Positions 2,321-64,000 of a DNA stretch of 64,000 nt are shown in pieces. The notes beneath the pieces are model-generated. The model made no database searches and was not told where the DNA came from. It worked only from the letters and a program-made list of their open reading frames with translations. The stretch spans positions 1,111 to 65,110 of the forward strand of contig JAKAZS010000003.1 in NCBI GenBank assembly GCA_021815785.1, written 5' to 3'. Origin of the DNA: a bacterium. GTDB taxonomy: Bacteria; Cyanobacteriota; Vampirovibrionia; Obscuribacterales; JAKAZS01. Made by a program: the position numbers and the translations under genes. Every line of letters begins with the position of its first letter. Position 1 is the stretch's first letter.

Positions 2321-3976
2321 TTATGAATTAATAATGTCATTCCATTCCTTAGTGAATTTTTCAAATTGTTCTTTTTGTAATTTTAAGGCATTTACACATT
2401 TCAATGATTTAATAGCTACTACCATATCTTGAGCTGCCATAGCTTCAGCAGTTATGTCCGTTAAAGTATTAATCATCAAATTAAGCTCTTTATTCAAAGA
2501 TTCAACCGCAATAAACATCATCTGACTATTTTCCGTTAGCCTGGCTAAACTTTGACTACTTTGTCCACTTTGCCCGGCATTATTCAGGCCATTTACGCCA
2601 GCATAGACGTTACTGGCATTGGGCGTGACGTTATGCTGAGCGGACACATTAATTGGGTTGACCGATTGTTGATAGCCTTGCTTAAAACCACTGGCATTGA
2701 TAGCTGCTTGTCCTTGAAACGAATTTTGACCTTGTTGCATATCGGTCTGATTATTACTTGGTGCTGACTGATTAGGATTATGCGTATTGACGAAGACATC
2801 AGCTGATTTAGTCAAAGGTGAAACAGGCATAGACTGTCCGAAAAAATTTTGCCCGAACATATTAGCTTGCGGCATATTAGACTGCGGCATATTGGCTTGT
2901 GGCATATTAGCTTGCGGCATATTGGCTTGTGGCATATTAGCTTGCGGCATATTAGCTTGTGGCATATTAGACTGCGGCATATTAGACTGCGGCGTATTAG
3001 CTTGCGGCGTATTAGCTTGCGGCATATTAGCTTGCGGCATATTAGCTTGTGGCATATTAGACTGCGGCGTATTAGCTTGCGGCATATTAGCTTGTGGCAT
3101 ATTAGCTTGTGGCATATTAGCTTGCGGCATATTAGCTTGTGGATGCTTTGGCAACTGATTAGCATTACCAGAATAAGTTGTAGGTGTTACAACATTTGGC
3201 GGTAAATTACTCGTAAGTAAATTATTATTTTCATATGGCGAGAGAAAGGCTGGTCCACTATCAGCTATTTCACGATTTACAAAAACCGGTTCGGGTTTAT
3301 TTCCTTTTAAATAGAATTTTTCTGACCCATCACACACACCCTGAATCACCTGAATATAATAAGCAAATAATCTTTTGCCAATTGTTGACAAAACATCTAA
3401 ATGTAACTCTTCGCCTTCAATCTGCCAATTTTCATGACTAGGATTATAGACGAATTCAATATAAGCCGGGAATTCATCAGGCGTAGCACTAAGTCTAATT
3501 AAATACTGAGTCGGGACTACATATACTTTGATTTTTGTTGGCACACTACGAATAATTAAAGACCACTGTCGAGTATAGATATGACCTTGCAGCCCAAAAT
3601 TAGCCTTACTACCAGGAATAGTTGCGACATTATTGGGCAGATTAATTCGCGATGGTAATTCAGTGCTAATTTTAAATTCTGGATTAGCAACATCTTTGCT
3701 AAATTCAAAAGCATATTTAGATAATTGATCAAAAATTTTATTGGCAATTACATCGTGGCTAATTTTTAATTCCTGGGAATTAACCGATGGCAGTAGATCT
3801 GGCAATTGCTTGCTTAAATCTTCTTTAAGATTTAACATCCATTTATTAGTCTGTGAACCAATACTAGGTCTTAAGGAATTCAAATAATTACTAGATAAAT
3901 TTTGGGCTTTATTTTTATCATCATTATTAGGATTATTAGGTAAACCCGAATTATTACTCTGATTTCTATCGTTCAT
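2321..3976 (-). CDS. hypothetical protein with a central P-Q-A/S-N-M/T pentapeptide array and N/Q-rich low-complexity regions
   Basis: 551-aa ORF. An N-terminal ~230-aa non-repetitive region is followed by 19 pentapeptide repeats, an N/Q/S-rich segment and a helical C-terminus. No family recognised. Confidence 0.7.
   Translation of the reverse strand: MNDRNQSNNSGLPNNPNNDDKNKAQNLSSNYLNSLRPSIGSQTNKWMLNLKEDLSKQLPDLLPSVNSQELKISHDVIANKIFDQLSKYAFEFSKDVANPEFKISTELPSRINLPNNVATIPGSKANFGLQGHIYTRQWSLIIRSVPTKIKVYVVPTQYLIRLSATPDEFPAYIEFVYNPSHENWQIEGEELHLDVLSTIGKRLFAYYIQVIQGVCDGSEKFYLKGNKPEPVFVNREIADSGPAFLSPYENNNLLTSNLPPNVVTPTTYSGNANQLPKHPQANMPQANMPQANMPQANMPQANTPQSNMPQANMPQANMPQANTPQANTPQSNMPQSNMPQANMPQANMPQANMPQANMPQANMPQSNMPQANMFGQNFFGQSMPVSPLTKSADVFVNTHNPNQSAPSNNQTDMQQGQNSFQGQAAINASGFKQGYQQSVNPINVSAQHNVTPNASNVYAGVNGLNNAGQSGQSSQSLARLTENSQMMFIAVESLNKELNLMINTLTDITAEAMAAQDMVVAIKSLKCVNALKLQKEQFEKFTKEWNDIINS
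2858..3142. repeat. 19 tandem copies of a 15-bp unit (plus-strand CATATTAGCTTGCGG and variants), in frame inside the 551-aa CDS
   Basis: Read directly from the sequence. Units differ only at 1-2 positions (agc/aga, cgg/tgg, cat/cgt), encoding PQANM/PQSNM/PQANT. They generate three shadow ORFs in the track. Confidence 0.95.
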
Positions 3977-49720: not shown

Positions 49721-52700
49721 TTAAATTTCTTCAAATACATCAGCCGGAACAGGTTCTTCATCCAAAGGTGAAATTAATTCACTTAAAGGAATGTCGACTT
49801 CTTCTTCGAGTTCACCAGCTGGTGTTTCATCATCAACCGGGGTATTTAAATCATTATTATCAAGCAAATCACTGGCTTCGACAATCGATAAGCCCAGATC
49901 AACTTCATCTTCATCAACAATCAAGTCGGTATCACCCTCTTCAATTGCTCCACCCACTAGTTCAAAGCCAACAAAATCACTTGGGCTACCTTCAACGGAC
50001 CCCAACGATTTTAAACCCAGGTTAGCAATTTCTGAATCCAGGCCAATTTCGCCAAACGGACTTAAACGTTTCGGTGCTCTGGTTTTAACCTCTTCCACCT
50101 CAACCATTAAATCGACTTCAACTTCAGTACCATCTTTAGATTTTTTAGCTACCGTCACATCTAGACCAATGGACTGCAATTCGCGAACCAAAACCTTAAA
50201 AGATTCTGGTATTCCAGGTCGACGCAGATTTTCCCCTTTGACAATGGATTCATAAGCTCGAGATCGACCATTAACATCATCGGATTTAATAGTCAGCATT
50301 TCTTGAAGCGAATAGGCCGAACCAAAAGCTTCTAAAGCCCAACATTCCATTTCTCCTAGACGTTGACCGCCAAACTGAGCCTTACCACCAAGTGGTTGTT
50401 GCGTAACGAGCGAATAAGGACCAGTAGAACGAGCATGAATTTTATCATCAACTAAATGGACTAATTTCATCATGTAAATTTTACCAACCGATACTGGATA
50501 ATCAAAGCTTTCGCCAGTTCGACCATCATAAAGGGTTACTTTACCATCATCACCAATCCATTCGATATCATTCATTTCCTTGCCAGTTTTAACTTCGCCA
50601 TGAACGAATTTAGTTGAAGCTTCCTTATCATACATTTCATCAAATGGTGGCACTTCGTAAATCCGCCCGGTAAGCATAGCAGCCAAACCAAGCAAAGTTT
50701 CAAAAGTCTGTCCGACGTTCATCCGACTTGGTACACCCAGAGGATTTAAAACAATATCCACCGGACTACCGTCAGGTAAAAATGGCATATCTTCAACTGG
50801 TAGAATTCTTGCCACAATCCCTTTGTTACCATGACGACCAGCAACCTTATCTCCCACACTTACCTTACGTTTTTGGGCGACATATACGCGCACTACTTTA
50901 TTGGATACGGGGGGCAATTCATCACCTTTGTCACGATCAAAGACCTTAACATCAACGACTCTGCCACCTTCACCATGGGGTACACGTAAAGAATTGTCTC
51001 TAACGTCACGAGCTTTTTCACCAAAAATTGCCCGCAGTAACTTTTCTTCAGGCGGATGTTCAGATTCGCCTTTTGGTGTTATTTTACCAACCAGAATATC
51101 ATCAGGATAAACCCTAGATCCAATTCGAACGATACCATTTTCATCAAGATGGCGTAAAGATTCTTCTGACACATTAGGAACTTCACGGGTAATTTCTTCG
51201 GGTCCTAATTTTGTTGATCGAGCATCACTTTCAAGTTTTTCAATATGGATTGAAGTTAAGATGTCATCATAAACCAATCTACGACTAATCAAAATTGCGT
51301 CTTCAAAATTGTACCCTTCCCAAGGCATAAAAGCTACAAGCAGATTACGCCCAACCGCTAATTCACCACTATTAGTAGCAGCTCCATCGGCGATAATTTG
51401 CCCAGGGACTACTGCCTGGCCTACTTCAACAAAAGGTTTTTGATTTAAACAGGTGTCTTGGTTAGATCGCTGAAATTTAGATAAATTATATCTAATCAAA
51501 TGACCTTCATCATTACGAATATGAATCGTGGTAGCTGAAACATATTCAACAATACCTTTGGTTTTAGAAAGTAAAACCATCCCAGAATCTCGAGCAGCAT
51601 GTCGTTCAATACCAGTAGCAACAAGAGGACGTTCAGTGCGCACCAATGGCACTGACTGCCGTTGCATGTTCGATCCCATAAGCGCTCTATTGGCATCATC
51701 ATGTTCCAAGAAAGGAATAAGTGCAGTTCCAACAGAAATAATCTGAATCGGACTTACCCCTACATAATCAACTTGATCTGGTGGGGCTTCAATAAATTCA
51801 GCTTTATAACGAACTGGTACTAATGGAGTCAAAAATTTACCATCTTTGTCAACCGTTACATCACCAGGAGCTACCCTATAATTATCTTCTTCATCAGCAG
51901 TTAAATATTCAACTTCTTTACCAACAATTCCATTAATAACTCGATGATATGGTGTTTCAATAAAACCATACTCATTAACCCTGGCATGGGTAGCCAGTGA
52001 ACCAATTAAACCGGCATTTGGGCCTTCTGGCGTTTCCACCGGACAAATGCGACCATAATGGGATGGATGAATATCGCGAACAGCAAAACCAGCTCTTTCG
52101 CGAGACAACCCACCTGGTCCCAAAGCTGATAGTCTTCGTTTATGGGTCAATTCAGCCAAAGGATTAGTTTGATCCATGAATTGTGATAACTGGGAAGAAC
52201 CAAAAAATTCTCGAATTGCTGCTACCAGTGGTTTTGTATTCAGCAAATTAGCTGGTGTAAGCGAATCGGCATCCTGTAAAGTCATCCGTTCACGCACAAT
52301 ACGTTCTAGACGAGATAAACCTACTCTAAACTGATTTTGTAATAATTCACCCACGCAACGGATCCGACGATTGCCTAAATGATCAATGTCGTCAACTTGA
52401 CCTTCGTCATAGTTTAAACCTATTAAATAATCGATTGAAGCAACAATGTCTTCACGAGTTAAAGTTCGGGTAGTTTCGGAAATATTTAGCCCGAGTTTTT
52501 TATTCATTTTATAGCGGCCAACTTTGCCTAAATCATAGCGCTTATCATCAAAGAAACGACTATCAATTATACTTTGACCGCCAGCTACTGAAGGTGGATC
52601 CCCTGGTCGTAATTTGCGATAGACTTCAATTAATGAATCATCTCTAGTTTTAGTTGAATCCTTGTCAAAGGTTTTTTTCAGAAATTCATGATGTCTAAAC

Positions 52701-53332
52701 ATCCCTTCCATTTCTGAATCAGTGTAGCCTAAAGCCCTTAAAAGAGTAGTTGCTGGAAGTTTACGATTTTTATCGATTTTGACATAAATAACATCATTAG
52801 TATCAGTTTCAAATTTAAGCCAAGCACCTCGATTAGGAATCAAAGTAGCCGAAAACGTTCGTTTACCATTTTGATCAATTTCACGTTTGTAATAAATCCC
52901 TGGACTACGGACAATCTGACTAACTACAACCCGTTCAGCTCCATTAATAATAAAGGTACCGCGATCCGTCATCATCGGAATATCGCCTACATAAATTTCC
53001 TGTTCCTTAATATCACCAATTTCACGGTTGACTAAACGCATTTGAATTCGTAGCTTTTTGGTAAAGCTAGACTCCATTATCCTAGCCTCTTCAGCTGTCT
53101 TAGGCTTGTTGGGCTCAGTATGTTCATCAAATGAATAAGAAGGTAAAAAATGTAATTCTAATCGTCCTGTATAATCTTTAATTGGACTAAAGGCCTTAAG
53201 TTCTTCACCTAAACCTTCACGAACAAACCACTGATACGAACTTTTTTGAATTTCAGCTAAATCTGGAAGATCTGCAATATGAGTACTGCCGACCCCAAAG
53301 GTTCGGACGCGCTCGATTAATTTTGATGTCAT
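49721..53332 (-). CDS. rpoB: DNA-directed RNA polymerase subunit beta with a long acidic C-terminal tail
   Basis: 1203 aa. Conserved blocks [66 protein letters not shown]. About 144 residues follow [17 protein letters not shown]. Confidence 0.95.
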
Positions 53333-53644
53333 TGATATCCCCTATGAACAAACAGCTAGCTAATCATGCCCTTGGTGTTGGTATGCAAATTGAAATAGAT
53401 ACAAACATATGGATTATTAATTCTAAATCCTTTTTATAAAGATTTGGGCTTTTGACATAGGTATGTTGACATTTATTAGATAAATTTTTTCTCAGAATCT
53501 GTATATTCAATAAATATAAGGATTTTATTCTAAATAATTATTAAATATATGAACAACACAATTTAACATTTGCGTTAAAATATTTATATATTGTTAAATA
53601 GATAGTAATTTTTTTTGCTTTCGTATTAATTGTATTGTTTTTAT

Positions 53645-53738
53645 GGGGATAGCTCTTTACTGGTGTAAGGCTCGGTCTTCAAAATCGATGTTGGAACAAA
53701 AATTCCAGGATGGGTTCAATTCCCATCTATCCCCGCCA
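53645..53738 (+). tRNA. selC: tRNA-Sec (selenocysteine, anticodon UCA), CCA encoded
   Basis: Reading 5' to 3': GGGGATAG (acceptor 5' strand), CT, CTTTAC-TGGT-GTAAGG (D arm), C, TCGGT-CTTCAAA-ATCGA (anticodon arm), TGTTGGAACAAAAATTCCAGG (variable arm), ATGGG-TTCAATT-CCCAT (T arm), CTATCCCC (acceptor 3' strand), G, CCA. This gives an 8-bp acceptor stem, a 6-bp D-stem with a 4-nt loop, an anticodon loop identical to E. coli selC, a long variable arm and a 5-bp T-stem, i.e. the bacterial 8/5 Sec fold. 94 nt. Confidence 0.92.
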
Positions 53739-53763
53739 TTATTAAAAGCTACAGCATTGTCTA

Positions 53764-53873
53764 GGTTTAATTCCCATCTATCTACCTGCTACCTGCTACC
53801 TGCTACCTGCTACCTGCTACCTGCTACCTGCTACCTGCTACCTGCTACCTGCTACCTGCCCGCCATTATTAAA
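53764..53873 (+). repeat. partial duplicate of the tRNA-Sec 3' end plus 8 nt of 3' flank, interrupted by a heptamer array (att-like scar)
   Basis: GGTTTAATTCCCATCTATC [array] CCGCCATTATTAAA compares with GGTTCAATTCCCATCTATCCCCGCCATTATTAAA at 53713-53746. There is one substitution, and a 76-77-nt insertion sits inside the C-run of the acceptor 3' strand. Confidence 0.85.
53783..53859. repeat. 11 perfect tandem copies of the heptamer TACCTGC
   Basis: Counted directly: 77 nt with no variant units. Confidence 0.95.
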
Positions 53874-53912
53874 TTATTTATAAAATTTAAAGAATTTAGC
53901 GCCGAAAAAATT

Positions 53913-53941
53913 TTGACAGAATACATTAAATTGTATTAATA
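53913..53941 (+). promoter_or_regulatory. candidate sigma70-type promoter for the Xer-like recombinase gene
   Basis: TTGACA (53913-53918), a 17-nt spacer, then TTAATA (53936-53941). Read by eye only. Confidence 0.35.
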
Positions 53942-53960
53942 TTAATCCGGCTAACTTATT

Positions 53961-54917
53961 CTGATAAATTTTCAAAAGGTTTTAAATATAATTACAAAAT
54001 CCCATTACCATAATTTATTATCTGAATTTTCAGCATATTTACTATATGAACGTAATTATTCTGATAAAACCGTTACGGCCTATTGTCATGACGTAATTGA
54101 TTTTATCAACTTTACCTATCCCAACTTTACTGACACTATCGATAATGAAAATTTTTATACGAGCAATTTGGCTAATTTAACGATTAATGACATTAGAATG
54201 TATTTAAATCAATTGCGGCAAAATTACGGCAAATCAAGTTATGCCCGCAAATTATCTTCATTAAAAAATTATTTTAATTATTTAGTTCGAGGCAAAAAAC
54301 TAGCCCATAACATCTTTAAAGAAATTAAGACGCCTAAATTAAACCGAAAATTACCATTACTTTTAAATAAAAATGAAATTGACAAACTAATAAAAGCCTG
54401 TGAGAAAGAAGAATTTGGCTTAAGGGACCAAGCACTTATTGAAGTTCTTTACGCTTCAGGAATTCGGGTTAGTGAATTAGTCAATTTAAAAGTTACTGAT
54501 TATAACAAATCACAACTAGAACTTATTGTATTTGGCAAAGGCGCAAAAGAAAGACTTGTCTTACTAACGAATGAGGCCAAACAAAGTCTGGAAAAATATC
54601 TTACTTGTTTGCGCCCTCGACTGTTACAAAACCCTGCTCAGACAGCATTATTTGTCAACAAATATGGCAATAAACTTACAACCAGAAGTATTGAGCGTTT
54701 AATCAAGAAATACAGCAAATTGGCCAAGTTGTCAAAGGTGGTATCACCCCATACCTTAAGACATTCATTTGCCACACATTTACTTGAAGGTGGAGCCGAT
54801 TTACGGGTAGTTCAAGACCTTTTAGGACATGCTTCAATTAGTACCACGCAAATATACACTCATGTGTCATTGGATCGCCTGAAAAGAATTCATAATTTAT
54901 ACCACCCACGCGCTTAA
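53961..54917 (+). CDS. XerC/XerD-like tyrosine recombinase; the N-terminal core-binding domain lies upstream of the track's TTG start and has no canonical start codon
   Basis: C-terminal catalytic domain ASGIRVSELVNL, HTLRHSFATHLLEGGADLRVVQDLLGHASISTTQIYTHV, ends HPRA. The frame stays open back to 53955 and encodes LLSEFSAYLLYERNYSDKTVTAYCHDVIDFINF (SAM-like N-domain motif). No ATG, GTG or TTG occurs in frame between 53955 and 54167. Candidate starts are CTG 53961, ATA 53988 and ATT 53991, the last two with AAGG 8-11 nt upstream. Confidence 0.75.
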   Translation: MINFQKVLNIITKSHYHNLLSEFSAYLLYERNYSDKTVTAYCHDVIDFINFTYPNFTDTIDNENFYTSNLANLTINDIRMYLNQLRQNYGKSSYARKLSSLKNYFNYLVRGKKLAHNIFKEIKTPKLNRKLPLLLNKNEIDKLIKACEKEEFGLRDQALIEVLYASGIRVSELVNLKVTDYNKSQLELIVFGKGAKERLVLLTNEAKQSLEKYLTCLRPRLLQNPAQTALFVNKYGNKLTTRSIERLIKKYSKLAKLSKVVSPHTLRHSFATHLLEGGADLRVVQDLLGHASISTTQIYTHVSLDRLKRIHNLYHPRA

Positions 54918-54967
54918 ATTAGCATATCTACTAACTGCGTGCTTAATCTAAGATCTCGTTTTAATTT

Positions 54968-55072
54968 ACCAAAATCAAATTAAATCTATCCTGATTATTA
55001 TTATTTTGATAGCGAAAGCGACAGCTGTAGTCATTGGTTAACAAAATCAAATTAAGGCTATCCTAATTACTA
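54968..55072. repeat. 33-bp imperfect direct repeat pair between the convergent xer-like and rlmB-like genes
   Basis: ACCAAAATCAAATTAAATCTATCCTGATTATTA (starts 54968) versus AACAAAATCAAATTAAGGCTATCCTAATTACTA (starts 55040), 28 of 33 identical by eye. An ACAGCTGT palindrome lies between them. Confidence 0.6.
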
Positions 55073-55096
55073 CTTGTAACTTACAGGTCGATTTCA

Positions 55097-55981
55097 CTAA
55101 TTTACATAAGCTTGACGATAAATTTCATATAAAATTATCGAGGCAGCTACTGAAACATTTAATGACTCAGTTTTACCAAGCATGGGAATCTTAATCATAA
55201 AATCACATTCTTCTTTAACCAGGCGGGAAATTCCACTGCCTTCAGCACCTAAGACTAAGACCATAGGATAGGCCAGTTTAGCTTCATATAAATTTTCTTG
55301 AGCACTAGCATCTAGCCCAGTTATCCAATAACCAAGCTTTTTCAACTCTTTGAGACTGCGGACTAAATTAACAACCTCGATAATCGGGAAATAAGCCATA
55401 GCACCACTACTAGCCTTAATGGAAATTGCATTAATTGTAGCAGTCCGACGTTTGGGCACAATTACCGCTAAAGCTTTGACGGCCTCAGCCGTTCGGATAA
55501 TAGCTCCCAGATTGCGCGGATCTTCAATACCATCAAGTACTAGAACGCAACTGGCCGGGTTGGCTGACTGATTTCGTGGATTAGACTTACTTAAGTCAGC
55601 AAAAAAATCACTAAATTCAACCGCATTAATCGTCGTTAACTGAGCTACAACACCTTGATGATTATCCTTACTTTGGATCATTCGCTCAAGTTTAAATTTT
55701 GAACAATCCTGAACAATAATACCCAATTTAACTGCCATGTGTTTTATAGCCTTTAATTTAGCATCATTAGCCATATCATTGGCCATGAAAATTTTCGAAA
55801 TCCGCCAGCGTTTGTCATCGCTAGGTACAGTTTGTTCGAGTTCGTTTTCTTCAGCGTTTAATCTCGATAAATACTCCCAAACTGGATTTTTGCCATAAAT
55901 TATATTGGCTAAATTTTCATATTCACTATCCATACCTGGTGAGATAAAATTGTTTTGCGTATTATTGCGGTTTCGCTTCAT
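55097..55981 (-). CDS. rlmB: SpoU/TrmH-family RNA 2'-O-methyltransferase (RlmB-like)
   Basis: 294 aa. YGKNPVWEYL substrate-binding N-domain, DGIEDPRNLGAIIRTAEA, LVLGAEGSGISRLV, ESLNVSVAASIILYE. Confidence 0.85.
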   Translation of the reverse strand: MKRNRNNTQNNFISPGMDSEYENLANIIYGKNPVWEYLSRLNAEENELEQTVPSDDKRWRISKIFMANDMANDAKLKAIKHMAVKLGIIVQDCSKFKLERMIQSKDNHQGVVAQLTTINAVEFSDFFADLSKSNPRNQSANPASCVLVLDGIEDPRNLGAIIRTAEAVKALAVIVPKRRTATINAISIKASSGAMAYFPIIEVVNLVRSLKELKKLGYWITGLDASAQENLYEAKLAYPMVLVLGAEGSGISRLVKEECDFMIKIPMLGKTESLNVSVAASIILYEIYRQAYVN

Positions 55982-56043
55982 CAGAAAATAATGTATAAAA
56001 TAAATTAAGTATTAAAAGTTGGAAATAATTATTTTAAGATTTA

Positions 56044-56244
56044 ATGTTAATAGATATCCTATTTTTTGGTATGCCTCTATCAACTTGTATCATTTTAACA
56101 ATGGTAGCATTAAGGCATCGTGAAGTCTATTTTTTAAATTCGGCTATTTGCTTTGCATTATACTGCATCTTTTATCTAAGCTATGGCCGAGCCATAATAT
56201 TTTATTTGTGTTCGATGTTTATGATGGGTGGTGTTTTATTTTAA
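56044..56244 (+). CDS. possible small two-TM membrane protein (weak call)
   Basis: 66-aa hydrophobic ORF in an AT-rich spacer. It could be spurious. Confidence 0.25.
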   Translation: MLIDILFFGMPLSTCIILTMVALRHREVYFLNSAICFALYCIFYLSYGRAIIFYLCSMFMMGGVLF

Positions 56245-56253
56245 TTATCAGCT

Positions 56254-56505
56254 TTATTCAGCTGTTTTTTTCTTAACCGCCGCGTTAATAAAATGCCTGT
56301 TTTGTTGAGCTTCGGCTAATGAACGCATCGGGATATTATGTTTTTTAAGCCAGCGCGAAATAGTATTTGGGTCACACCACATCCCTTCTTCATCACGATA
56401 AGATCGAGCGATTTCCACAGTGCTTAATTTATCCTTGACATATTTTTGCATTAGCCAGTTTTTATCTTGATATAGAAATTTTGTTGATCTTAAGTTTTTT
56501 GCCAT
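56254..56505 (-). CDS. small basic protein with a helix-turn-helix-like segment
   Basis: 83 aa. KLSTVEIARSYRDEEGMWCDPNTISRWLKKHNIPMRS resembles an HTH with a recognition helix. No family assigned. Confidence 0.45.
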   Translation of the reverse strand: MAKNLRSTKFLYQDKNWLMQKYVKDKLSTVEIARSYRDEEGMWCDPNTISRWLKKHNIPMRSLAEAQQNRHFINAAVKKKTAE

Positions 56506-56648
56506 GAATTAATCCAATTAAAAATTTTAGGGTTATGCTATATATAGCTTATAATAAGATAGCTAATAAATACATACCTTCAATAAGCTTTCTTAAAACA
56601 AATAATTTATTTTTTAATTTTAGCTAACATCGTTGTCAGTATAAACCA

Positions 56649-58037
56649 ATGCGTAATATTCCTGATATTAATTCACTGTTAAATCACCCTCAATTATCGG
56701 GCAAATTAAAGCAAAACCTCTTAGCTAAATTAATTCGACAACAAATTAACATTTTAAAAGAAACATCTAAGGACAGTCTTAATTTAGCTGTTGACAAGAA
56801 TGAAAGATCGCTATTGACAAAAAAAATCATTACCGGGGTTTTAAAAGACGTCGAAAAATTAACTAATTATAATATTAAAAGGGTGATAAATGGCAGTGGG
56901 GTAATTTTAAATACTAATTTAGGCCGTTCCCCAATACCCCAAACCGTTGTTGAATATCTAAGTCAAAACCTAAACGCCTACCTTGATTTAGAAGTAGATA
57001 TCGAATCTGGTAAAAGAATTGAACGAACCCATAATGCTGAAAATTTATTGAAATTTTTAACCGATGCCCAAAGTTGTCTTATTGTGAATAATAATGCTGC
57101 AGCACTTACCCTAATTATTAACACATTTTCGCTTAATAAAGATGTAATTATTTCCCGAGGGGAATTAGTCGAAATTGGTGGCAATTTTCGCTTACCCGAC
57201 ATTATTGAGGCTTCCGGTGGGATTTTAAAAGAAATTGGCAGTACGAATAAGACTAAAATTACTGACTATGAAAAAGCTTTAAACAATGAAACTGGCTTAA
57301 TTTTAAAATGCCACAAATCTAACTTTAAGGTTTTAGGTTTTACCCAGGATGTTGATTTGTTAAGTATTAATCAACTAAAACGTAAAATTCCTTTAGTCTA
57401 TGATCTTGGTAGTGGTATTTTTGAAGGCTATTTAGACGTTAAACAAACAATGCCAATCAATGACTTTATCATCAACGCTAAAATGCTCCAACATCTTGAC
57501 CTGCTCTGCTTTTCTGCAGACAAACTACTAGGTAGTTTACAAGCCGGAATTATTTTAGGTAAGGAGAAATACATAAACAAACTTAGGATTAACCCACTTT
57601 ACCGTTCTTTGCGGCTAGACAAAGTATCAATTATGATTTTAGAAAAATGCCTGCAACTTTACCTTAAACAAGAATCCTTTGATGAGTTTCCGGGTTTAAA
57701 AGTCTTAAATATCGACAAAACCAATTTAAAGTCAACAGTACAGAATTTTATCAATTGGCTCAAACCTGAAATTAACTCGCTAATACTTAGACCTATTGAA
57801 ACGCAAGCAATTCTAGGTGGTGGTAGTATAAGCGACCTTAAACTTGATAGTTACGGATTAATTATTGAGTCAATGAAAAACCTTACCGCTAATTCTCTTA
57901 ATAAGTTTTTTCGCTTAAGCAAACCAGCCATAATTGGCCAAATTCAACACAATCAATATATAATTGACTTTGCGACTTTATTAAATGATGACTTGACTTA
58001 CCTAGCAAAGGCGATAAAGGAACTTGATTTAAGTTAA
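56649..58037 (+). CDS. selA: L-seryl-tRNA(Sec) selenium transferase SelA
   Basis: 462 aa. The PLP-lysine region LLCFSADKLLGSLQAGIILGKEKYINKLRINPLYRSLRLDK parallels E. coli SelA [20 protein letters not shown]...HPLKRALRADK. The N-terminal IPDINSLLNHP fits, and the length matches. Confidence 0.9.
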   Translation: MRNIPDINSLLNHPQLSGKLKQNLLAKLIRQQINILKETSKDSLNLAVDKNERSLLTKKIITGVLKDVEKLTNYNIKRVINGSGVILNTNLGRSPIPQTVVEYLSQNLNAYLDLEVDIESGKRIERTHNAENLLKFLTDAQSCLIVNNNAAALTLIINTFSLNKDVIISRGELVEIGGNFRLPDIIEASGGILKEIGSTNKTKITDYEKALNNETGLILKCHKSNFKVLGFTQDVDLLSINQLKRKIPLVYDLGSGIFEGYLDVKQTMPINDFIINAKMLQHLDLLCFSADKLLGSLQAGIILGKEKYINKLRINPLYRSLRLDKVSIMILEKCLQLYLKQESFDEFPGLKVLNIDKTNLKSTVQNFINWLKPEINSLILRPIETQAILGGGSISDLKLDSYGLIIESMKNLTANSLNKFFRLSKPAIIGQIQHNQYIIDFATLLNDDLTYLAKAIKELDLS

Positions 58038-61176: not shown

Positions 61177-64000
61177 ATGTTAGTTTTTAATATTTGTCAT
61201 AATTGTGGAAATTCTAAAGTTGTTAGCGGTCAACCATGTTTAAACTGTGGTGAAATAATTTCAAAATTTTCAGCCACTGAATTACCTAGTCCACTAATTA
61301 TTTTTCAGCCTCTAAATATCAATTTAACCTTAGACTTATCCTTAAGCGAAAAAGTGTTAACTAATATCCGTTTTAAAAAACTAATAGCTGATAATAACAA
61401 ACCTAATCCAAACGTTACCCAAGAAACAAATAACAGTATTAGCCAAATTGCGGATACGGATCCAACCCGTAATCAACCAAAACCAGAAGCTCTAACTTTA
61501 TTTAATGAAGAAAATATTTTAGATAATGACTTAAACTATCGCAACAAAGACCAAATAGCTCCACTAAATGGTCCTAGTTTGTTTGAAGATGATAATGACC
61601 TGAGTTACCCAAACAATGTAACAGTAGATATTAATAAATCAATTCAGCCGAGCAATTCGCCTAGTATTCATAATTTTCAACCCAGTCAATTGCCAATACC
61701 TAATAATGTAGCGTCAACCAGTGTAAAGAATGATAAATCTGAACCATCTCTGGAAAAACTAGTTGAGGACTTAACGCTTAGTTTAAATAACATGTTGACG
61801 GCCAATGAAGCAAAATCTGATTTACCACAAAATAATCTTAATGAATCAACACAGCAACGTGAATTTGGCCAGTTAAATAATCCGTCAGTTAACGAGTCAA
61901 CACAGCAACGTGAATTTGGTCAGTTAAATAATCCGTCAGTTAACGAGTCAACACAGCAACATGAATTTGGCCAGTTAAATAATCCGTCAGTTAACGAGTC
62001 AACACAGCAACGTGAATTTGGCCAGTTAAATAATCCGTCAGTTAACGAGTCAACACAGCAACATGAATTTGGTCAGTTAAATAATCCGTCAGTTAACGAG
62101 TCAACACAGCAACATGAATTTGGTCAGTTAAATAACAATTCAAGTTCAGACCCAAAACAAAATATCGACAATACCAACCAATCAAAGTTAAACAATGACG
62201 CTCAAGATCAACAAAAAGAATCTCCCATAGATACCCCTACAAAACCTAACAATAATACCAGTCAAACCAAGGATACCGTTTCAAGTAACACTTTAAATTT
62301 ACTAAATTTTGATTTTAATCCTATTCCCCAAGAATCACCAACTAAAGCCCAAACACCAAATACCAATAAAACAAATACCCAGACTGATTATAAGCCCGAA
62401 ACATCTAAAGGCTTTGATGATTTTCCCAGCTTGGCTGAATTAAATACAACTTCAACTTCTATTCGATCCGATAATTTAAAACCTAAGAATTTTGTAAAAC
62501 AAGCCCAAAACAATCTTAAACATGCTCAAACTAATGACGAAGAAGACGATGATGATGAAAATTTTGATTACAATCACCCTGTAAAAGCCAAATCCGGTAA
62601 ACCTTCTGCCAAGAAAAAAAGTACTTATAATGACACCGAAAATGATCCTGATGATGATCCCCCGAAATTTAAATTACGTAAATTCTCCACTAAAAATATC
62701 CCTGATGACGGTGAAGAAGAAGGAGAAGAAGAAAACATTTCCCCGAAACACAAATTACGTAAATTCTCGACCAAAAACAAAATAAGCAATAATGGTTCTG
62801 ATGATGATGATGATGAAAGCGAAGATAATGAAAAGACTATTATTAAAGGCAATGCAAAATCTCCAAAATCAAAAAGTAAAAAAGCTAAAGATAGCTTAGA
62901 TACAGATGAAGACAATGACAATGTTAATTTATTCAATCGCCAAATTAACATTTTAGGAATATCGCTACCACTAACAACGATATTAATTATCGGCTTTTTT
63001 GGCCTGTTTATTTTCTGGCAACTAGTAAGTGGTATTGGTTCAATTGTTGGCGGATTAGGTTCAGTTGGCAGCAACCTTAATATTATGAGTAATAATAATA
63101 CACCTTCATTAAGTGGAGCCTGGAAATTTGTAGCTGTAGCTCAAGGTCAAAAATGTGAAGGTTATTTTAATCTAGAACAAAGTAATAATCAAATAGCTGG
63201 TGACGGTCGCGATAATAATGGCAATTTTGAAATTATTGGAACTTTTACGCCTCCTAATAAAATTAATTTCGTAAAAAAATATTATGTAAACGGTCAAGAA
63301 GTATTTAAACCAGTAAATTTTGATGGCTTAATCAATTTCGAACAGAATCCGCTTTACGTTCAAGGTTCGTTTAATGTGACTTTCCGCCAAAATTATGGCT
63401 GGCGTGGTCATCCGGTTACTGTTGTTGGACAGTGGGAAGGTATTTTAGCTAAGCCAATGAATAATCAGGTAACCGATAATGCCCGTTTTAATAAAGTCCA
63501 TCATATTCAGTCAACCGGCTTTAATCCCCTTAACAATTTAACTAATTCTTTTACCTATGCAGCAGTTGGTGGTATAGGATTAGCCGTATTTTTAATATTT
63601 TATTCGATACATTTATTTGGGCCAAATGGAAAAATTCAAATTTCTGAAAAACAACGTTATGTTACTTCCCAGTTTAAATCACAACATATAAAAATGTTAA
63701 AAGAAATGAGTGCCCCTTATAAAATTGGTGGCTTATCTTTAGGAACACGTTGTGAGTGGAAATTCTTTAAATTCTGGGAAATTAAAGAATTGGCTTTTAC
63801 TCCAAAAATCCGTGACAAAAACCCTCACTCACTAATTCTGGGCACAGCCAATAAAGGTAAAACCAGGTTGGTTGCCAATTTCATAACGCAGGATATTCTA
63901 GCCAAAGATCGCGCAGTTGTCGTCATCGATTCAGACGGTGGTTTAGTTGATTTAATTTCACAATGGATTGCTTCTCATGAAAAAGGAAAAACTATTGCCA
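61177..64000 (+). CDS. large membrane-anchored P-loop NTPase (type IV coupling protein / HerA-FtsK-like) with an N-terminal zinc ribbon and repeat-rich arm; 3' end beyond the window
   Basis: Not in the ORF track. I read every codon from ATG 61177 to nt 64000 and found no stop. CHNCGNSKVVSGQPCLNCG; 6 x 17-aa repeats; two TM helices (about 62950-63020 and 63555-63620); Walker A LILGTANKGKTRLV followed by AVVVIDSDGGLVDL. Confidence 0.85.
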   Translation, partial: MLVFNICHNCGNSKVVSGQPCLNCGEIISKFSATELPSPLIIFQPLNINLTLDLSLSEKVLTNIRFKKLIADNNKPNPNVTQETNNSISQIADTDPTRNQPKPEALTLFNEENILDNDLNYRNKDQIAPLNGPSLFEDDNDLSYPNNVTVDINKSIQPSNSPSIHNFQPSQLPIPNNVASTSVKNDKSEPSLEKLVEDLTLSLNNMLTANEAKSDLPQNNLNESTQQREFGQLNNPSVNESTQQREFGQLNNPSVNESTQQHEFGQLNNPSVNESTQQREFGQLNNPSVNESTQQHEFGQLNNPSVNESTQQHEFGQLNNNSSSDPKQNIDNTNQSKLNNDAQDQQKESPIDTPTKPNNNTSQTKDTVSSNTLNLLNFDFNPIPQESPTKAQTPNTNKTNTQTDYKPETSKGFDDFPSLAELNTTSTSIRSDNLKPKNFVKQAQNNLKHAQTNDEEDDDDENFDYNHPVKAKSGKPSAKKKSTYNDTENDPDDDPPKFKLRKFSTKNIPDDGEEEGEEENISPKHKLRKFSTKNKISNNGSDDDDDESEDNEKTIIKGNAKSPKSKSKKAKDSLDTDEDNDNVNLFNRQINILGISLPLTTILIIGFFGLFIFWQLVSGIGSIVGGLGSVGSNLNIMSNNNTPSLSGAWKFVAVAQGQKCEGYFNLEQSNNQIAGDGRDNNGNFEIIGTFTPPNKINFVKKYYVNGQEVFKPVNFDGLINFEQNPLYVQGSFNVTFRQNYGWRGHPVTVVGQWEGILAKPMNNQVTDNARFNKVHHIQSTGFNPLNNLTNSFTYAAVGGIGLAVFLIFYSIHLFGPNGKIQISEKQRYVTSQFKSQHIKMLKEMSAPYKIGGLSLGTRCEWKFFKFWEIKELAFTPKIRDKNPHSLILGTANKGKTRLVANFITQDILAKDRAVVVIDSDGGLVDLISQWIASHEKGKTIA
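61843..62148 (+). repeat. six tandem 51-bp units inside the giant ORF
   Basis: Unit GAGTCAACACAGCAACGTGAATTTGGCCAGTTAAATAATCCGTCAGTTAAC encodes ESTQQ(R/H)EFGQLNNPSVN. Units start at 61843, 61894, 61945, 61996, 62047 and 62098. As read, differences are essentially CGT/CAT and GGC/GGT, plus the edges of the first and last units. Confidence 0.95.

Follow-up and report, generated by a model that had tools for sequence, protein, structure and literature searches.

Islander recognizes genomic islands at transfer RNA genes (tDNAs) from an intact tDNA and a same-orientation fragment of the cognate gene end, a 3′ fragment lying downstream, with crossovers assigned to the anticodon loop, the T-loop or the T/acceptor junction (Hudson, Lau & Williams 2015, PMC4383910). 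A second point of comparison is provided by Haemophilus influenzae, in which, according to PMC8262952 and PMC2424069, heptanucleotide tracts upstream of hmw1A and hmw2A vary in copy number among strains through slipped-strand mispairing. Here we describe a locus that resembles both: the 3′ end of a selenocysteine tRNA gene (selC) in a 64,000-nucleotide stretch (hereafter the window) of contig JAKAZS010000003.1 (assembly GCA_021815785.1, Obscuribacterales), where the end of the gene is repeated downstream and the repeat is split by a perfect array of TACCTGC heptamers. As in an Islander tDNA with its displaced fragment, the tRNA 3′ end recurs downstream as a direct repeat with its start at the T-stem/T-loop, and like some of the Islander fragments it carries a lesion 3 nt 5′ of the discriminator. 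Islander islands hold the island and its integrase between the two copies, whereas here there is neither; the repeat takes in flank beyond the CCA and behaves as a tandem minisatellite, unlike an Islander fragment; and the lesion is an insertion turned microsatellite, where the damaged Islander fragments have a small deletion. The feature is genuine and clearly resolved. It is a duplicated selC 3′ end that is prone to recombination and slippage and holds a hypervariable microsatellite within it, and we consider it probable that the locus is a small unstable repeat region derived from the selC end and not the footprint of a resident mobile element.

Structure of the duplicated selC 3′ end

The selC gene (Table 1) has anticodon TCA, an 8-bp acceptor stem and an encoded CCA, and its match to Rfam RF01852 (53645-53734) reaches 72.4 bits (gathering score, 47). 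The first copy of the repeated segment (copy 1) consists of the final 26 nt of selC (T-stem GG through CCA) and an 8-nt flank, TTATTAAA, and together with the spacer AGCTACAGCATTGTCTA forms a 51-nt unit. The second copy, or pseudo-3′ end, is present in two halves. Its left half is identical to the tRNA gene at 18/19 positions (GGTTCAATTCCCATCTATC at 53713-53731 versus GGTTTAATTCCCATCTATC at 53764-53782), the sole difference being C>T in the T-loop, and on the right the 15 nt CCCGCCATTATTAAA at 53732-53746 are repeated exactly (15/15) at 53859-53873. The break point lies between CTATC and CCCGCCA, in the C run of the pseudo-acceptor strand, 3 nt 5′ of the discriminator. Here TRF reports a period-7 array (53782-53859; 11.1 copies, 100% matches, no indels, score 156). 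The first C of CCCGCCA in the right half is also the last C of the final heptamer, so the net insertion in the pseudo-end is 76 nt (6 + 10x7).

A search for the split pattern AATTCCCATCTATC-N(62-92)-CCCGCCATTATTAAA finds one match in the window and none in 100 shuffles, and (TACCTGC)2 gives 10 overlapping matches versus 0 in shuffles; the window holds a single (TACCTGC)n array. A single open reading frame (ORF) crosses it (53643-53939), called mechanically and overlapping the tRNA. An earlier reading of the sequence, hereafter the original prediction, had described a tRNA-Sec 3′-end duplicate with one substitution, split in the acceptor-strand C run by 11 perfect TACCTGC units, and both the repeat search and TRF bear this description out. 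The duplicate indeed begins in the T-stem/T-loop and extends past the CCA, as att identity blocks do, and the promoter suspected downstream of the array is found by a promoter scan, 53 nt from it.

Table 1 Features of the selC region in the window, and alleles of the locus in same-species contigs
Feature	Position in window, or contigs	Strand	Evidence
rpoB	49721-53332	-	ORF list; Pfam families at the loci
selC (tRNA-Sec)	53645-53738	+	ARAGORN; Rfam RF01852
Copy 1 of repeated segment	53713-53746	+	Repeat search and sequence
17-nt spacer AGCTACAGCATTGTCTA between copies	53747-53763	+	Sequence
Pseudo-3′ end, left half GGTTTAATTCCCATCTATC	53764-53782	+	Repeat search, 95% identity to selC
(TACCTGC)x11 perfect microsatellite	53783-53859	+	TRF, motif search, allele comparison
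Pseudo-3′ end, right half CCCGCCA, with duplicated flank TTATTAAA	53859-53873	+	Repeat search, 15/15
Predicted sigma-70-like xer promoter	53913-53942	+	Promoter scan, 10/12 matches
Xer-family tyrosine recombinase gene (xer)	53988-54917	+	Pfam, NCBIfam NF001399, alignment, frame analysis
selA (L-seryl-tRNA(Sec) selenium transferase)	56649-58037	+	Pfam PF03841, E = 1.9e-105
Allele with 4 heptamers	L018, L159		Spanning contigs
Allele with 7 heptamers	L004, L017		Spanning contigs
Allele with 11 heptamers	window, L002, L163		Spanning contigs
Allele with 12 heptamers	L003, L016		Spanning contigs
Allele without pseudo-end, with three TAAATAAAA sub-repeats in a 50-nt A-rich flank	L001		
Allele with extra 51-nt unit, pseudo-end intact and recombinant	L161		

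Copy-number variation among independent assemblies

Exact-protein look-up recovered more than 20 same-species contigs from independent samples, with flanks 99.6-99.98% identical to the window. In every allele seen selC is intact, and its sequence is identical across all same-species loci. Heptamer copy number varies among these contigs, as the original prediction had supposed it might: spanning contigs carry 4, 7, 11 or 12 units, perfect in every allele compared. No single-nucleotide polymorphism (SNP) separates the alleles of 11, 12 and 7 units in 394 + 1350 nt of flanks, and the 4-unit allele has one. Arrays of 4 to 12 units on flanks with 0-1 SNP point to a tract that changes far faster than point substitutions accumulate.

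Whole repeat units vary as well. The extra pseudo-end in L161 has the sequence GGTTTAATTCCCATCTATCCCCGCCA, its left part (GGTTT) coming from the pseudo-end and its right part (intact CCCGCCA) from selC, and thus appears to be the product expected of unequal crossing-over between the two copies. L001 would be the reciprocal type of product; it lacks the pseudo-end despite flanks 99.8-99.9% identical to those of the window.

Further details of these alleles were observed. The extra unit of L161 (GCA_027405655.1, DAHYZM010000271.1) lies in the last 189 nt (window orientation) and has no heptamer; the contig stops at the next ATCTATC. The A-rich flank 3′ of selC and of the pseudo-end (L001, L150 and L021) is built of 14-15-nt sub-repeats in which TAAATAAAA is joined to CTACA, GCCACA, ATACA or ACCGA; one of them, GCCACATAAATAAAA, resembles the tRNA end GCCA plus flank. 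L001 has an L150-like flank haplotype within a genome otherwise close to that of the window. The end of L160 (ERZ27237250, k141_1191208) shows 4 heptamers and TACCT joined to 48 nt absent from the window (TAGCGAGTGTAGTTTATGCAAG...), so that the contig end may be chimeric, or else a second locus or a rearrangement shares the repeat. Contig ends inside the array were considered as a sign of within-sample heterogeneity and rejected, as Logan ends correspond to k-1 and MEGAHIT ends are uninterpretable.

Age and in-place origin of the heptamer

Diverged relatives carry a single hexamer at the site of the array. In L150 (93-95% identical to the window) an intact selC is followed by a 37-nt spacer and then by GGTTCAATTCCCATCTATC-CACCTG-CCCGCCA, and L021 (~96.7% identical) has at least two tandem pseudo-ends with one CACCTG in each. 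Since CACCTG sits at the same site in both, the 6-nt insertion predates the split of the three lineages (93-97% identical), and the array of the window is an in-place expansion of this insertion together with the following C. The original prediction, in which a microsatellite colonized the scar from outside, has to be revised accordingly: the comparison indicates growth from a single CACCTG already present in diverged lineages.

In L150 and L021 the hexamer TACCTG also stands directly to the left of the pseudo-end (GATACCTG followed by GGTTCAATT), and an ACCTG direct repeat flanks the 20-nt segment GGTTCAATTCCCATCTATCC. This direct repeat hints at a templated insertion. CACCTGC is an AarI site and ACCTGC a BspMI/BfuAI site, probably by coincidence.

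Origin of the duplicate

The alleles and related lineages suggest the following course of events. A 50-70-nt segment running from the selC T-loop through the CCA into the A/T-rich flank would have been tandemly duplicated by unequal recombination or slippage once the sister species had diverged, giving rise to the pseudo-3′ end. As comparison of the lineages shows, a YACCTG insertion of 6 nt then entered the pseudo-acceptor strand, 3 nt before the discriminator; it is old, as it is common to all three lineages. In the window lineage the 7-nt TACCTGC (the insertion and the next C) expanded, and it gains and loses units by slipped-strand mispairing at a rate far above that of point mutation. The alleles show that unequal crossing-over between the true selC end and the pseudo-end still adds and removes whole units. 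The Xer-family gene, with its own conserved promoter, would be an ancestral core neighbour.

Local tandem duplication, which we hold to be the probable origin, is favoured over an att remnant, which we hold to be doubtful, because the repeat unit takes in 8-23 nt of flank beyond the CCA, because the L150 spacer aligns to the flank 3′ of the pseudo-end in an X-Y-X′-Y pattern (score 16 versus 8.2 +/- 1.9 in shuffles, reached by 1/2000) and because whole units are still being gained and lost, as seen in L021, L161 and L001. Several points weigh against this preference. The X-Y-X′-Y similarity depends largely on the low-complexity TAAATAAAA, and minus the first 9 nt its score is reached by 179/2000 shuffles (not significant). 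The left boundary of the duplicate falls in the T-stem/T-loop, the crossover site of one tRNA-targeting integrase class, and a random duplication need not start there. Alignment against shuffles detects no homology between the spacers of the window and L150, so that the spacer histories of the two alleles may differ. The pseudo-end persists through 5-7% sequence divergence. The count of arrays covers one 64-kb window, and other (TACCTGC)n loci in the genome are possible; the neutrality of the array, discussed below, is something that we infer. As a candidate duplication junction, a TTCAATT microhomology between T-loop and flank was tried and rejected, the observed CGATACCTGGG/TTCAATT not matching the predicted CGATAA/TTCAATT.

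In the att-scar alternative, possible but in our judgement rather unlikely, a T-loop/junction-type integrase once placed an element at the selC 3′ end and displaced the original tDNA fragment, which survives as the pseudo-end (attR); nearly all of the element was later lost, and the insertion and microsatellite followed. In its favour, selC is a classic island target in enterobacteria. The geometry is also that of a tDNA and its displaced 3′ fragment, an end fragment in direct orientation, downstream and with a T-stem/T-loop start (PMC4383910): selC occupies 53645-53738 and the fragment 53764-53873, both on the plus strand, and identity begins, in the window, at the GG of the T-stem 5′ strand and, in L150, at TGGG. 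The interruption, moreover, falls where Islander notes ‘damaged’ fragments, with the lesion 3 bp upstream of the discriminator (PMC4383910). Islander, however, needs an integrase and at least 2 kb between the copies (PMC4383910), and here they are 17 nt (window) or 37 nt (L150) apart with no integrase inside. It is contrived to suppose that an element was almost entirely deleted and yet both att copies were spared, the repeat includes flank beyond the CCA, the spacer resembles the downstream flank, and tandem duplication is demonstrably active at the locus in L021 and L161.

Searches for the missing parts of an integration system agree with these points. A third copy of the tRNA end was not found in the 64-kb window (26-mer with ≤3 mismatches, 14-mer with ≤2 mismatches; two known copies only), and no occupied selC site, in any allele, was found in >20 contigs from four lineages. 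IMG/VR, the sole element collection scanned for attP, returned only 3 hits to GGTTYAATTCCCATCTATC and none attP-like; they are chance matches inside a phage structural ORF, with the match ending at CTATCCGC and no tRNA. In the JGI metagenomes, from which the clade is missing, neither the xer-promoter 34-mer nor a conserved tRNA-Sec-body 28-mer had a match. The duplicate is shared by relatives at 93-97% nucleotide identity without a mobile element, an outcome that the original prediction had itself named as one that would refute it.

The recombinase next to selC, which the original prediction had taken as part of an integrase footprint, proved to be of a different kind. It is the sole recombinase nearby, its gene lies outside the repeat interval, and its product scores 312.5 bits against the Xer model NCBIfam NF001399 (cut-off 279), compared with only 21.9 bits for the site-specific integrase model NF041502 and negligible scores for island-type integrase models. 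Gene order in relatives is in keeping with a core gene. The sister species (78.5% nucleotide identity; Xer protein 61% identical to that of the window) has the same order as the window, rpoC1-rpoB, selC, xer, with no duplicate and no heptamers in 6 loci (including L010), and in distant Obscuribacterales xer is divergent from rpoB with no tRNA between them and no duplicate. Because rpoB-xer adjacency is kept in relatives without the duplicate, xer appears to be an ancestral core neighbour of rpoB by synteny and not an island integrase.

Neighbouring genes and host lineage

Upstream of selC the minus strand carries rpoC2, rpoC1 and rpoB, the last being the conserved divergent neighbour that anchors the ancestral order rpoC1-rpoB / (selC) / xer. 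Downstream are the tyrosine recombinase, a SpoU-type methyltransferase and selA, the last 2.9 kb 3′ of selC, which marks the surroundings of selC as a core selenocysteine locus. GC skew has no sign change across the window. Placement of selC between rpoB and xer is seen only in this genus-level clade (window 53645-58037 versus L010 and L156/L157), and a block of SpoU methyltransferase, an 83-amino-acid ORF and selA follows xer in place of the PBP gene that follows it in the sister species and in distant Obscuribacterales. From this clade-limited placement and the replaced block, the selenocysteine genes appear to have been rearranged around a conserved rpoB-xer junction.

The best named homologues of RpoC1 are from Candidatus Obscuribacterales (85-87% identity), followed by Melainabacteria (76-78%), and named Xer homologues point to the same lineage. 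These identities indicate that the host belongs to a non-photosynthetic Obscuribacterales lineage related to the cyanobacteria and is not a filamentous cyanobacterium.

The predicted xer promoter comprises TTGACA, an 18-nt spacer and TAATAT, its -35 hexamer lying 53 nt 3′ of the array, and it is conserved in the sister species as TTGACA...TATTAATAT, starting ~12 nt after selC. The recombinase has the Pfam domains PF00589 (catalytic) and PF02899 (SAM-like N-terminal), and the catalytic R...K...HxxR...H...Y is visible in the translation (GIRVSE, GKGAKER, HTLRHSFATH, LLGH and IYTHV). Like the XerC and XerD dimer-resolution recombinases, it has both domains and the catalytic residues and exceeds the Xer subfamily cut-off; it differs in falling just below both equivalog cut-offs (XerC, TIGR02224, 315 versus 335; XerD, TIGR02225, 307 versus 330) and in having no canonical start codon.

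The frame that encodes its conserved SAM-like domain contains no ATG, GTG or TTG (window 53955-54170; also L150, L021 and L001), and the product aligns to protein P0002 from residue 22. Gene callers start xer at TTG 54168 (249 amino acids), or later in L150 (234 amino acids), and half of the SAM-like domain is then lost. A 1-nt indel between lineages restricts the start of the conserved frame to ATA 53988 or ATT 53991, AAGG stands 10-12 nt 5′ of ATA 53988, and the sister species has a TTG start where the window has TTA. A start at a non-canonical AUA or AUU seems likely from these frames.

Possible functions of the repeat

The array is most likely selectively neutral, since neither the xer promoter nor any ORF contains it; its greatest effect would be a longer selC trailer, a stretch that doubles as the xer leader wherever transcripts read through. 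Terminator prediction finds nothing between selC and xer, so read-through RNA may include the array. The duplicate structure is dispensable, because L001 and the sister species are without it.

An improbable alternative is a contingency tract, in which heptamer number tunes xer expression or tRNA-Sec maturation and provides heritable, reversible strain variation; for xer, the route would be an altered distance or phase of upstream sequence, or of selC read-through, relative to the promoter or leader. Strains that are otherwise identical differ in the copy number of this perfect tract (4, 7, 11 and 12 units on 0-1 SNP in 1.7 kb), as expected of a contingency locus; the tract lies close upstream of the xer -35 hexamer with no predicted terminator before the gene, and xer expression may be unusually leader-sensitive as the gene has no canonical start codon. 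PMC8262952 and PMC2424069 also associate 7-bp tracts near promoters with hmw1A/hmw2A expression variation in H. influenzae. The hmw tracts, however, lie between promoter and start codon, whereas the array here ends upstream of the promoter, outside the -35/-10 spacer, the leader and any ORF. Its neighbours, xer and selC, are housekeeping genes, unlike hmw1A/hmw2A and unlike typical contingency genes. L001 and the sister species are without the tract and show no visible compensation, and the fold predicted for the tRNA does not change from n = 1 to n = 12.

Still less probable is that the interruption is maintained because an intact selC-end copy on a read-through transcript would act as a decoy that captures the tRNA 5′ acceptor strand, in which case the heptamer tract may be a by-product of a ‘decoy-disabling’ lesion. 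Equilibrium folding, which ignores co-transcriptional folding, gives the true acceptor stem a probability of 0.00-0.04 next to a hypothetical intact pseudo-end, and 0.66 (L150) or 0.96-0.99 (window alleles, n = 1 to 12) next to the interrupted forms. The folding model thus hints at selection for ‘damaging’ the copy. Random 6-nt insertions, too, restore the stem (mean 0.80), L161 tolerates an intact copy, and array length beyond n = 1 makes no difference, the last two speaking against a decoy, as does the neglect of co-transcriptional folding. If true, a decoy could explain why displaced island-end tDNA fragments are frequently damaged just before the discriminator. In a weaker variant of this reading, tract length may tune selC-to-xer read-through onto an mRNA with a non-AUG start.

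TACCTGC arrays in other genomes

Cyanobacterial short tandemly repeated repetitive (STRR) sequences are a further system with heptanucleotide units, and heterocystous cyanobacteria reportedly carry units such as CCCCAAT, TTGGTCA and CAACAGT, which are said to come from work by Mazel et al. in 1990. TACCTGC/GCAGGTA differs from these units. The array shares with STRR sequences its tandem heptanucleotide units, its intergenic position and a host in the wider cyanobacterial phylum. STRR sequences form a dispersed family in heterocystous hosts, whereas here there is a single locus in 64 kb, in a non-photosynthetic Obscuribacterales genome, with an array derived from a 6-nt insertion in place.

Bacterial genomes commonly contain arrays of (TACCTGC)n≥3, with at least 120 stretches in Genome Taxonomy Database (GTDB) species representatives from many unrelated phyla, compared with ~0.3 expected occurrences of a random 21-mer (estimate for 596 Gb, both strands). 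This lineage is not visibly among the GTDB (TACCTGC)3 matches listed, and only 2 of ~125 arrays among the matches listed lie within 300 nt of a tRNA. Five IMG/VR contigs contain (TACCTGC)3; they were considered as related and rejected (GC 46-63%, different contexts). TACCTGC thus appears from its distribution to be a recurrent bacterial microsatellite that is neither lineage-specific nor tRNA-linked. The fit to filamentous cyanobacteria in the original prediction fails on the RpoC1 placement of the host and on the solitary array in the window.

That a dispersed, lineage-specific STRR-like heptamer family landed in the scar is accordingly a very remote prospect and largely refuted; the abundance of (TACCTGC)n in bacteria is in its favour, and against it stand the unrelated phyla of the listed genomes, the rarity of nearby tRNAs, the single array in the window, the Obscuribacterales host and the one CACCTG at exactly this site in diverged lineages, which argues that the array arose in place. 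We give virtually no credence to an assembly artefact as the explanation of the array, although several contigs end inside it (L005, L007, L008, L019, L020 and L164) and Logan contigs stop after exactly 30 nt of repeat (by our own reading k-1 for k = 31), because at least 7 independent contigs from different samples and assemblers read right through it into unique sequence at either end, with four copy numbers; the array is thus present, not absent, in independent assemblies of several samples, and the original observation stands.

Arrays in other genomes (L030-L149) often mix YACCTGY variants, and inverted GCAGGTA-type arrays stand just upstream in several loci (for example, L034, L088, L089, L100 and L104). 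Several Sulfurovum loci share the left context ...AAAAATTGC, and some genomes have 2-3 (TACCTGC)n loci. (TACCTGC)n looks like a recurrent class of heptamer microsatellite that may deserve its own study.

Other repeats in the window

Two further tandem repeats were observed. A 51-nt repeat at 61838-62135 (5.8 copies, 96% matches) lies in an ORF that starts at ~61177 (+) and runs off the window; its large protein has only a faint TrwB_AAD_bind match and is called as 1241, 1273, 1275 or 1292 amino acids across assemblies, and several contigs end in the repeat. This appears to be a second length-variable repeat locus. At 2858-3139, in ORF 2321-3976 (-), a 15-nt repeat (18.8 copies, 88% matches) encodes pentapeptide repeats (Pfam PF00805).

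Implications

The locus is a new instance of known phenomena, probably neutral, and no new kind of system. It carries a caution for att inference, as a tRNA 3′-end repeat beside a tyrosine recombinase can mislead: in this case a core Xer gene encodes the recombinase, and the repeat acts as a self-propagating mini- and microsatellite. The locus also makes two questions testable, namely whether a tRNA folds less well when its trailer contains an intact copy of its end, and how expression of a Xer gene is achieved when it has no canonical start codon. For the uncultured Obscuribacterales population, the heptamer tract is a fast and cleanly scorable strain marker, with 4 to 12 units on identical flanks.

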